IMG/VR virus record: IMGVR_UViG_2534681662_000014
Span: 1-24,458 of that record
Direction: 5' to 3' (one strand)
DNA: 24,458 bases
From: a virus
Taxonomy: Duplodnaviria; Heunggongvirae; Uroviricota; Caudoviricetes
Shown in pieces: positions 9,001 to 12,000 of the stretch (positions within the stretch are counted from its first letter, which is position 1; the number at the start of each line of letters is the position of its first letter). Made by a program: the position numbers.

Positions 9001-12000
9001 ACCCGTCAGAATCTGGCGGGGATCCGTCAGTAAAATCAAAACATGATCCGTCAGATAAAAAAACTTCTCGTCCGGACGCTTCGCAACCGGACACGCAGAC
9101 GGCTGAACAGGAGTTTTTAACTCGCCATCCTGATGCGGTTGTATTCAGCCCTAAAAAGCGCCAGTGGGGAACGCAGGATGATTTGACCTGCGCACAGTGG
9201 CTCTGGAAAAAAATCATCGCCCTGTACGAGCAGGCCGCCGAATGTGACGGCGAGGGGGTTCGTCCCAAAGAACCGAACTGGACAGCCTGGGCAAACGAAA
9301 TTCGCCTGATGTGTGTGCAGGATGGTCGTACTCATAAACAAATCTGCGAGATGTACAGCCGCGTCAGCCGCGATCCGTTCTGGTGCCGTAACGTGCTCAG
9401 CCCGTCGAAGCTGCGGGAAAAATGGGATGAGCTTTCCCTGCGCTTATCGCCGTCCATCAGCACATACACAGAAAAACGCGAAGACCCGTATTTCAAATCC
9501 AGTTACGACAACGTGGACTACAGCCAGATCCCGGCAGGATTCAGGGGGTGAGCATGAGTCTTTTGAATGAAGTTCAGAAATTCATTGAAGCCCATCCGGG
9601 CTGTACTTCCGGAGACATTGCGGATGCTTTTGCAGGTTACTCACGGCAGCGCGTTCTGCAGTCAGCAAGCAAGTTACGTCAGAGTGGGCGTGTGGCTCAC
9701 CGTTGTGAAGGGGATACACGCAGACATTTCCCGCGCCTGACTGAGAGAGCGCAGGAGCCGGAACCACAACCAGTTCGTGAAACCAGACCTGTGCGCAATT
9801 TCTATGTCGGCACTAACGATCCACGGGTGATTTTGTGCCTGACCCGCCAGGCTGAAGAACTGGAGTCCAGGGGCCTATACCGTCGTGCTGCAACGGTGTG
9901 GATGGCGGCATTCCGTGAAAGCCACTCCCAGCCAGAACGAAACAATTTTCTGGCGCGTCGTGAGCAGTGCTTACAGAAAAGCAGCAAGCGCGCTGCATCG
10001 GGTGAAGAGTGGTATCTGTCAGGGAATTACGTGGGGGCGTAATGACGACGTTAACTCAATGCCAGCAGCAGGTGCTGGATATGCTGATTTCTTATCAGAA
10101 AGAGCGTGGCTTTCCGCCAACCAATCAGGAGGTGGCAACCATGCTGGGATACCGTTCGGTGAATGCAGCGGTGGAGCATCTTCGCGCACTGGAGAAAAAA
10201 GGCGTCATCACGATAAAGCGTGGCGTGGCACGGGGGATAACGCTTCATACCGCTGTGAAGGACGACGACAGCGAGGCGGTCGGGATTATCCGCGCACTGC
10301 TTGCCGGTGAGGAAAACAGCAGGCTGCGTGCAGCCCACTGGTTACATGAGAGGGGCCTGAAAGTATGAAGCTGATTCTGCCTTTTCCGCCCAGCGTGAAC
10401 ACGTACTGGCGACACCCCAACAAAGGGGCGTTTGCTGGTAAGAGCCTGATAAGCGCGGCGGGGCGAAAATTCCAGAGCGCGGCGTGCGCAGCAATAGTTG
10501 AGCAGTTACGTCGTCTGCCGAAACCAACGTCGGCACCTGCTTCAGTGGAGATCGTGTTGTTTCCTCCGGATAACCGGATCCGCGATCTGGACAACTATAA
10601 CAAGGCGCTGTTTGACGCCCTGACCCACGCGGGTGTGTGGGAAGACGACAGCCAGGTGAAAAGAATGCTGGTGGAGTGGGGACCGGTTATCCCGGAAGGG
10701 AAGGTCGAGATCACTATCAGTAAGTACGAGAAAACGGCGGGTGCAGCCGCCTGATTAAGAGGAGAAACGAAGTATGAATAATCTGATGGTTATTGATGGT
10801 ATTGAAGTTCGTCGTGATGCTTATGGGCGTTACAGCCTGAACGATCTGCACAGGGCTGCTGGTTCTCTGGATAAGCATAAGCCTGCATTCTGGCTCCGCA
10901 ATGAGCAAACTGAACGTTTAATAAGCGAGTTGCAGATTTGCAACTCGGTCAATATAGAACCAGTTAACGTTATTCGTGGCGGAAATAACCAGGGGACGTA
11001 TGTCTGCAAAGAACTGGTGTATGCCTATGCAATGTGGATCAGCCCGTCATTCCATCTGAAGGTGATCCGTACTTTCGACATGGTAACCAGTGCACCGGAA
11101 AAATTATCCGGACAGGCTGCTGACAAGATGCAGGCTGGTGTGATTCTGCTGGACTTTATGCGCCGGGAATTAAACCTGTCTAACTCTTCAGTGCTTGGAG
11201 CCTGTCAGAAACTCCAGGAGGCTGTTGGCTTACCGAATCTGGCACCGCGCTATGCCATTGATGCTCCTGCTGACGCGCCTGATGGCTCAAGCCGCCCCAC
11301 GCTGTCACTGAGTGCACTGCTGAAGCAGTATGGTATCCGCCTGACAGCTAATCAGGCATATCACCAGATGGTGAAGCTGGGGATCGTCGAGCAGCGCGAA
11401 CGATACAGTCGTACCGCGATTAACAACATCAAAAAATTCTGGTCGCTGACAGCGAAAGGCTGCATGTTCGGCAAGAACATCACCAGTCCCGCAAATCCGC
11501 GCGAGACGCAGCCGCATTTCTTCGAATCCCGATTCCCTGAGCTGTTAAAGCTGCTCGATACCGTTCATTGAGGTGACCGTGAGAGCGCTACTGACCCCTG
11601 AAATAGCCCCGCGTATGGGGATCGTATTGTTCAGACCAGGTTCAGAGCTGATGCCCCTGTTTATGCAGGGGCGTGTACTGCTGGAGCCTGAGCCGGAACG
11701 TTATTCATCTTTCGCCAGTGGTGCCGTTCCCGCGGCATCACAACCGCTGGCGGATGATCCTGCTGTTCGGGCCGTGTTCCGCAATGAGGCAGTGATCCGT
11801 CGTGCTGGTGGCGTGGAATGTCTTGAAAGCTGGTTACTTCGTGAAAAATGCTGCCAGTGGCCTCATTCCGACTGGCACAGCGAGAACATGACCACAATGC
11901 GACACGCTCCGGGCGCAATCCGTCTGTGCTGGCACTGTGATAACCAGCTGCGCGATCAGTTCACGGAACGGCTGGAATCAATGGCAACGGATAACTGTGC

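Follow-up and report, generated by a model that had tools for sequence, protein, structure and literature searches.

What do two small genes do that lie between a replication gene and the resolvase gene rusA in the early region of an SfII-like prophage? The question is raised by a 24,458-nucleotide (nt) stretch of viral DNA (Caudoviricetes; positions 1 to 24,458 of IMG/VR record IMGVR_UViG_2534681662_000014), the whole of which is called the window below. The first gene, yfdN, encodes a protein with a PerC domain. The second, referred to here as the LexA-like gene, encodes a LexA-type DNA-binding domain without the Peptidase_S24 (S24) domain. Both are already known at annotation level as common early genes of SfII-like prophages. 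The window YfdN is 100% identical to WP_001619134.1 (loci L001 and L095), with the RefSeq name 'yfdN: PerC family transcriptional regulator', and the LexA-like protein is 100% identical to WP_001721080.1, named 'LexA family protein / lexA DNA-binding domain protein'. As a sequence feature nothing is therefore added, the proteins being identical to RefSeq entries of the same family names. The main result concerns the second protein, which was found to belong to a distinct family of short LexA-type proteins whose stable genetic partner is rusA and whose relatives repeatedly occur in LexA-controlled circuitry. Judging from its sequence, a role as a RecA-insensitive, SOS-type DNA binder, as proposed in an earlier sequence-only reading of the window, is plausible.

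Both genes were shown to be intact and under purifying selection. Ratios of nonsynonymous to synonymous substitution rates (dN/dS) relative to Salmonella and Citrobacter homologues were 0.14 for the LexA-like gene and 0.17-0.25 for yfdN. A 1.4-kb stretch of the locus matches 51 phage records at 95-99% identity, among which SfII, SfIV, mEp460 and many Stx2c/Stx2 (Shiga toxin) phages, and is present in 2703 of 5426 complete E. coli genomes.

The sequence-only reading had placed two open reading frames (ORFs) at 9554-10368 and had taken both to be translationally coupled with rusA; the ORFs stand at these coordinates, and the reading frames overlap up to rusA. The yfdN ORF extends from ATG 9554 to the stop TAA at 10040-10042 (162 amino acids, aa), and RefSeq uses an alternative start, GTG 9548 (164 aa). 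The TGA stop of the preceding O-like gene (9549-9551) overlaps this GTG in the sequence GTGA, or ends 2 nt short of ATG 9554. One base is shared by the yfdN stop and the ATG at 10042 of the LexA-like ORF (TAATG). The LexA-like ORF (108 aa) in turn ends with TGA at 10366-10368, overlapping the ATG of rusA at 10365 (ATGA). These stop/start overlaps suggest translational coupling along the O-like gene, yfdN, the LexA-like gene and rusA. An RNA hairpin at 10317-10340, just 5' of the rusA start, was no more stable than shuffled sequences (z = 0.69).

That the second gene encodes a LexA-type winged helix without S24 domain had been read from the sequence, and hidden Markov model searches confirmed it. 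Pfam LexA_DNA_bind (PF01726) matched aa 1-65 with 69 bits (cut-off 23.7) over the whole 65-position model, and the Pfam scan of this protein found no Peptidase_S24 match; the protein ends at residue 108, with rusA directly next. Without an S24 domain the Ser119/Lys156 catalytic centre is absent, and with it LexA-style self-cleavage. The TIGR00498 lexA model scored 70.3 bits, under its cut-off of 110.95, and was matched at positions 1-91 only; by this equivalog test the protein is not a LexA repressor proper. Phrog_362, annotated as 'transcriptional repressor', was matched with 198.3 bits by aa 1-108 over all of its profile (positions 1-106 of 106). In the AlphaFold model (predicted local distance difference test, pLDDT, 77.5) a winged helix (aa 1-68) is followed by a short flexible linker and two helices. 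Foldseek superimposed the model on DNA-bound LexA (3jso_B) with a root-mean-square deviation (rmsd) of 1.0 Å over 67 aa and 51% identity, and phmmer aligned the protein with 1lea at E 6.5e-16 with 35 of 70 residues identical (50%). Base contacts of LexA are made from helix 3 by S39, N41, A42, E44 and E45 (PMC3091678). Four of these five (S39, N41, A42, E45) are retained in the LexA-like protein, E44 is replaced by V, and the wing residues R64 and G65 are kept.

The alignment continues into the LexA hinge, with LLAGE against VAAGE in the region of the Ala84-Gly85 cleavage site. This 'AGE' remnant was considered as a conserved site for cleavage in trans and rejected, because the Gly is replaced by Lys or Asn in close relatives. 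Relatives of the LexA-like protein were sought exhaustively among 1.84 billion representative proteins. The two-helix tail recurs in them, its pattern EAxxLIRALL...ARxRAxxWL being conserved in relatives of 39-54% identity. Since such divergent relatives share both the short architecture and the helical tail, the protein represents a distinct family and not a random truncation. Tandem LexA_DNA_bind proteins without S24 domain, of about 160-220 aa, were also encountered (P0252, P0271, P0281, P0284 and others, each with two Pfam stretches).

Gene order was analyzed in 80 viral loci, which are all at least 97% identical and were used for gene-order statistics only; a scan of genome contigs for loci gave 5 loci. 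The order yfdN, LexA-like gene, rusA is near-universal across the 80 near-identical loci. Of the 74 viral loci having both genes, 45 have yfdN and the LexA-like gene separated by a dam methylase gene of about 650 bp (for example L002:6641-7294; only a fragment, yfdM, is retained in K-12), and 25 show the abutting arrangement of the window (10040-10044; dam gene absent). Divergent lineages often lack the PerC gene or have a 78-aa PerC-only ORF in its stead. The LexA-like gene usually has DUF968 and Q genes downstream and often a DNA methylase gene upstream. Its context was readable in 12 lineages, down to 39% identity, and in 11 of them it directly precedes rusA or is separated from it by one small gene; the contig of P0247, too short to show neighbours, is outside this count. 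Locus L104 lacks rusA, and a 67-aa ORF and DUF968 come after the LexA-like gene instead. An NTGA stop/start overlap with rusA is kept in five lineages. Since the adjacency to rusA persists where the PerC gene is missing, rusA and not yfdN is the partner that the LexA-like gene keeps, and the two small genes are no obligate pair.

The scan of relatives for SOS boxes took in about 100 loci, all carrying the LexA-like gene. In three divergent lineages (L101:3560, L103:3561 and L104:513) a terminator, a sigma-70 promoter and a strong SOS box were found to head the operon of the LexA-like gene (promoter regions L101:3500-3580, L103:3500-3580 and L104:480-540). These boxes, ACCTGTACATTCATACAGTA in L101, TACTGTTTATATATACAGTG in L103 and TACTGTTTATTTATACAGTA in L104, overlap or abut the -10 element. 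The operon order is (dinI), a conserved ORF of 75-82 aa, the LexA-like gene, (the 67-aa ORF), (RusA), DUF968 and Q, with dinI as first gene in L104. From this layout, control of the late-gene antiterminator Q appears to lie directly with LexA in these three phages. Only one 5+5 palindrome, ACTGT-N8-ACAGT, occurred in 5 of 10 divergent loci at non-homologous positions. Besides canonical SOS boxes, a de novo search for shared palindromes in ten divergent loci yielded only positions conserved within homologous coding sequence. The recurrence of SOS boxes in relatives indicates that the family is repeatedly embedded in LexA-controlled circuitry, a setting which would fit a RecA-insensitive LexA surrogate.

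SOS boxes were also observed elsewhere in relatives. A near-perfect box, TACTGTTTTTATATACAGTA, lies inside the SfII-type cI coding sequence, in the linker between the helix-turn-helix and S24 domains (codons about 70-77, 'SNTVYKNSNN'). It occurs in L002:3736-3755 (SfII cI), L095:12230, L093:739, L005:1103, L007:996 and 11 more viral loci. The box at L095:12230 belongs to an intact prophage whose yfdN and LexA-like genes equal those of the window; the window has a different CI type without the box. This cI-linker box might act as a roadblock formed by LexA or as a promoter within the gene. A box of the TACTGTAAAAATAAACAGTG type follows Q in L103 (6739), in L093 (9904) and in about 12 of the 80 viral loci (e.g. 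L023:7921), in the latter at about 3.9 kb downstream from the LexA-like gene. The boxes of L103 and L093 stand just 5' of an N6_N4 DNA methyltransferase gene, and may mark a LexA-controlled methylase moron in these relatives; the region is missing from the window.

The PerC assignment of the first gene was upheld by Pfam: PerC (PF06069) matched YfdN with 36.3 bits (gathering score 22.6) over aa 98-149. The label ANR-like, given to the protein in the sequence-only reading, had to be dropped. The NCBIfam ANR model NF033650 scored 22.2 against a cut-off of 32, so that the weak similarity of aa 96-141 to this family of Aar-like AraC negative regulators remains below cut-off and YfdN is, by this test, not a member. 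The full-length PHROGs family of YfdN is phrog_1324 (260.7 bits), and full-length identity and the conserved place 3' of the O-like replication gene assign the protein to the YfdN orthologue group. An AlphaFold model built on 18 homologues agrees with the winged-helix-like N-terminal region suggested before. Foldseek found this part to resemble ArsR/SmtB/MarR winged helices (about 2 Å over about 60 residues, weak E-values), and a profile comparison with phrog_1687 (MarR-like) gave E 8e-5. A disordered linker (aa 63-83) connects it to the predicted three-helix bundle (helices 90-105, 109-122 and 126-145, pLDDT about 90) in which the PerC match lies. With YfdN as query, a sequence search of the PDB gave zero matches, and a fold search gave generic winged-helix matches only and no PerC-domain structure.

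YfdN ends in a tail, EWYLSGNYVGA, in which W153-G161 are invariant or near-invariant among homologues down to 68% identity. The tail is predicted to be disordered (pLDDT <50 for aa 146-160) and could be a short partner-binding motif. The last yfdN codons double as Shine-Dalgarno sequence of the LexA-like gene, which explains part only of the tail conservation.

The following explanation is proposed for both proteins, with a probability of about 0.4 for the whole. As members of the pR operon, the proteins would be made only once the CI-type prophage repressor is inactivated. The LexA-like protein would dimerise through its helical tail and, as a LexA surrogate insensitive to RecA, bind inverted repeats of the CTGT type that resemble SOS boxes; promoters governed by LexA, in the host or in resident phages, would thereby be brought under control again after LexA cleavage. 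As Glu44 is always replaced, its operator is probably akin to the canonical SOS box, not identical to it. Translational coupling would fix the ratio of LexA-like protein to RusA within the phage recombination and late-gene module. Pch is known to relieve H-NS silencing (PMC4764244), an activity that belongs to Pch and is extended to YfdN by analogy only. YfdN may likewise be a DNA-tethered PerC-type anti-silencer acting on H-NS complexes, which would serve the phage's own purpose and not dedicated virulence regulation. A proposal for the short LexA-type family as a whole is that it would be a RecA-proof LexA surrogate that re-silences or re-times SOS promoters post-induction, in a conserved 'SOS exit plus recombination' cassette composed of sometimes dinI, then the LexA-like gene, RusA, DUF968 and Q; this proposal we hold as doubtful.

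Several observations weigh against the surrogate LexA and anti-silencer reading. The window contains no exact CTGT-N8-ACAG, and none of its 17 one-mismatch sites (8.9 expected) lies at a plausible prophage promoter. CTGT/ACAG inverted repeats at spacings 0-20 in the window were not above chance, with no operator-like site in the prophage. Position 44 of the recognition helix, Val in the window protein, is non-acidic in all 10 short-family members aligned. Recognition helices are most diverged in those members that lie behind an SOS box of their own, and Glu45 is lost as well in P0327 and P0298, which argues against simple autoregulation at canonical boxes. Dimerisation via the two-helix tail is suggested by a monomer model alone (pLDDT about 83), and inheritance as a module, without functional coupling, may account for the fixed order with rusA. 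For YfdN, the PerC match spans just positions 5-56 of the 90 in the model, and the enterocyte effacement locus (LEE) is not known from this strain. A literature search gave no functional study of YfdN or of any lambdoid protein consisting of a LexA DNA-binding domain only. The best SOS-box-like site of the window, CTGTTTTTATATAAAG (14975-14990, one mismatch), was rejected as a candidate; it lies in an AT-rich spacer between the DUF1722 gene and the insertion sequence IS1, beyond the prophage, lacks homology to phage loci and probably represents a chance match.

The same loss of Glu44, with variable positions 42-45, can be taken to mean that specificity has drifted from that of LexA, and that the LexA-like protein is a phage-specific transcription factor with an operator of its own, unrelated to host SOS boxes, for example timing or activating late or recombination genes. 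The gene always lies in a module ending with Q, and the only characterised truncated phage LexA homologue, gp6 of GIL01, activates P3 at its own site (PMC6182141). However, the ten divergent loci gave no module-specific 5+5 palindrome, the module is nearly without non-coding DNA, and gp6 has no detectable sequence similarity to the LexA-like protein; a phage-specific operator is judged somewhat unlikely. The constancy of rusA next to the LexA-like gene or one small gene away (11 of 12 lineages), among PerC, Dam and KilA-N genes that come and go, and the conserved NTGA overlap would also be expected if the protein were no transcription regulator but a DNA-binding adaptor for RusA/DUF968 recombination, the overlaps serving stoichiometric co-production. 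Such an adaptor is hard to reconcile with L104, which has the 67-aa ORF and DUF968 in place of RusA, and with L100, in which a reverse-strand gene splits the LexA-like gene from rusA. Moreover, RusA acts alone in other phages and in K-12 DLP12. We consider the adaptor role distinctly unlikely.

For YfdN, its PerC match above the Pfam threshold and a PerC core 38% identical to that of PchE invite the view that it is a virulence regulator of the PerC/Pch type, activating promoters of LEE or of other host virulence genes from the prophage. The gene is, however, present in half of complete E. coli genomes including K-12 (97% identical), and the genomes carrying it are presumably mostly strains without LEE. 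Lying inside the pR operon, yfdN should be silent in the lysogen, and its protein, compared with the 90-aa PchE, possesses a winged helix and a conserved tail in addition. PchD and PchE are themselves very poor activators of ler (PMC5931665). The mentions of YfdN found in the literature come only from screens and from ler-reporter work in which it was deleted, for precaution, as the K-12 homologue of PerC (PMC5931665). No support for a virulence role was found here, the 97% identical K-12 YfdN being still listed as uncharacterized, and this role appears very unlikely. Least credible is the view that both ORFs are functionless, decaying leftovers (a truncated lexA and a fused PerC fragment), for which the truncation of the window prophage after Q and the persistence of yfdN in the heavily deleted CPS-53 remnant of K-12 could be cited. 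It is refuted by the selection analysis (dN/dS 0.14-0.25, with synonymous sites near saturation in comparison to Citrobacter). The intactness of both genes in the plaque-forming phages SfII, SfIV and mEp460 and the conservation of the architecture down to 39% identity also speak against it.

Table 1 Coordinates of the features of the window discussed in the text
Feature	Position	Strand	Basis or remark
CI-type prophage repressor (HTH_3 + Peptidase_S24)	6752..7378	-	Pfam Peptidase_S24 96.7 bits, HTH_3 41.8 bits
pR-like sigma-70 promoter candidate TTGACC-17-TAGCAT	7421..7449	+	Consensus scan
cII-like gene	7600-8265	+	Early operon; DUF4222 ORF next
O-like replication initiator, HTH_36 N-terminus	8610..9551	+	Pfam HTH_36 42.9 bits; phrog_391 'replication initiation O-like' 452 bits
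yfdN orthologue	9554..10042	+	162 aa; winged helix, linker, PerC three-helix domain, conserved tail
YfdN aa 1-60, predicted winged helix-turn-helix	9554..9733	+	AlphaFold H3-13, H19-25, H31-43, E47-52, E55-60, pLDDT 80-91
YfdN aa 98-149, PerC match within predicted three-helix bundle aa 90-145	9845..10000	+	Pfam, AlphaFold
YfdN aa 152-162, C-terminal tail EWYLSGNYVGA	10007..10039	+	Homologue alignment
LexA-like gene (LexA DNA-binding domain only, no S24 domain)	10042..10368	+	108 aa
LexA-like aa 1-68, winged helix-turn-helix	10042..10245	+	AlphaFold, Foldseek
LexA-like aa 75-103, predicted two-helix C-terminal extension	10264..10350	+	AlphaFold H75-87, H93-103, pLDDT about 83
rusA Holliday-junction resolvase	10365..10754	+	Pfam RusA 56.4 bits
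KilA-N protein	10774-11571	+	Pfam KilA-N 92.2 bits
DUF968/HNH-like protein	11573-12568	+	Pfam DUF968 270.1 bits
Antiterminator Q	12583-12963	+	Pfam Phage_antitermQ 171 bits
Terminator-like hairpin 3' of Q	13062..13085	+	Consensus scan; 9-bp stem, then T run

The coordinates of the features are collected in Table 1. The window starts with proA (1-1254) and tRNA-Thr(CGU) (1369-1444), followed by an integrase gene, and was shown to contain the remnant of an SfII-like lambdoid prophage integrated at thrW beside proA. ThrW is the attachment site of SfII-like prophages, and the closest complete genome holds an intact SfII-like prophage there. The product of 6752..7378, labelled 'LexA family protein' in the near-identical locus L001, is the RecA-cleavable immunity repressor of the window prophage. 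Facing its gene, the pR-like promoter candidate heads the rightward early genes cro, cII-like, O-like, yfdN, LexA-like, rusA, KilA-N, DUF968 and Q. The consensus scan found no strong plus-strand terminator-like site upstream of 13062-13085 and no internal promoter-like site directly 5' of yfdN or the LexA-like gene, and both genes are probably members of the pR operon. The early-right transcription unit probably ends at the hairpin in this prophage, which is truncated right after Q, with no lysis or virion genes downstream. A PADLOC search gave no meaningful defence-system match for either gene or their neighbours.

The O-like initiator is the sole replication gene of the module; versions in relatives have Phg_2220_C. 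A helicase-loader gene (lambda P or DnaC-like) is absent from the module, and yfdN sits at the place of lambda P. The gene of the DUF968 protein occurs together with the LexA-like gene and RusA in almost every lineage. The C-terminal region of this protein is HNH-like (HNHc_6, 26.9 bits), and the protein also gave a faint match to the RecA-dependent nuclease family (Ref-like). Beyond the prophage follow a lipocalin gene (13119-13643, minus strand), a 2-thiouracil-desulfurase/DUF1722 gene (13836-14795) and IS1 (15275-15966). Past IS1 lie a ProQ/FinO-like gene, IS66-family genes, a 1295-aa S6 (serine protease autotransporters of Enterobacteriaceae, SPATE) autotransporter at 19425-23315 (minus strand) and an F4/K88-family fimbrial subunit at 23354-24265 (minus strand). 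The DNA from IS1 onward is 99% identical to E. coli plasmids of 130-138 kb. Only 1 of 20,395 records spans at least 80% of the stretch, so that the chromosome/plasmid junction is either rare or an assembly join.

An uncleavable LexA domain, linked to RusA, is thus present in about half of complete E. coli genomes and in Stx2c phages. If it occupies SOS boxes, it would give prophages a widespread influence on the SOS response and on cross-talk among themselves. Were the surrogate LexA proposal true, prophages in about half of complete E. coli genomes would modulate the host SOS response, affecting mutagenesis, filamentation and the induction of co-resident Stx or other LexA-controlled prophages. 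The helical tail and the loss of Glu44, the linkage to RusA, and the SOS-box/dinI operons of relatives were not found reported in the literature searched; they make the idea of an uncleavable LexA surrogate directly testable.

Among known systems, YfdN of K-12 (b2357, cryptic prophage CPS-53) is 97% identical over all 164 residues, with no structural difference. The K-12 gene likewise follows an O-like gene and precedes a dam-type methylase gene, but the K-12 module is deleted after the yfdM (dam) fragment and has no LexA-like gene or rusA there. PerC of enteropathogenic E. coli (EPEC) and PchA/B/C/D/E of enterohaemorrhagic E. coli (EHEC) are prophage-borne as well and have the PerC helical core in common with YfdN. 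PchE (90 aa, Sakai Sp7) shows 38% identity to YfdN over 52 residues (aa 94-145). As it aligns with the PerC core only, the architecture of YfdN is longer than that of the studied Pch proteins. Indeed, group 1 pch genes measure 315 bp (PMC5931665), and Pch proteins are essentially the PerC domain alone, whereas YfdN adds a winged helix, a disordered linker of 20-30 residues and a conserved C-terminal tail. PchE was therefore rejected as a YfdN-type protein, and its phenotypes are not transferable to YfdN.

The LexA-like protein has the same fold as the N-terminal domain of LexA (1LEA, 3JSO), with 50% identity. It differs from LexA in the absence of the S24 peptidase/dimerisation domain, and with it of RecA-stimulated self-cleavage and the LexA-type dimer, in the replacement of E44 by V, in the family-specific two-helix tail and in the hinge Gly, which is K or N in the family. 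The nearest studied case is gp6 of the Bacillus tectivirus GIL01, a truncated LexA homologue that binds DNA and activates the late promoter P3 (PMC6182141). GIL01 is another type of phage with another host, and of the two proteins gp6 is the one with a demonstrated function. Its gp6 is a bare winged helix of 66 aa without helical tail, and BLASTP of gp6 against the LexA-like protein gave no alignment at E <= 100. By sequence gp6 is an analogue, no closer relative of the LexA-like protein than LexA itself. The phage cycle of GIL01 is tied to the SOS response, and the LexA-like protein is, like gp6, a phage-encoded LexA DNA-binding domain without cleavage domain, encoded among early or replication genes.

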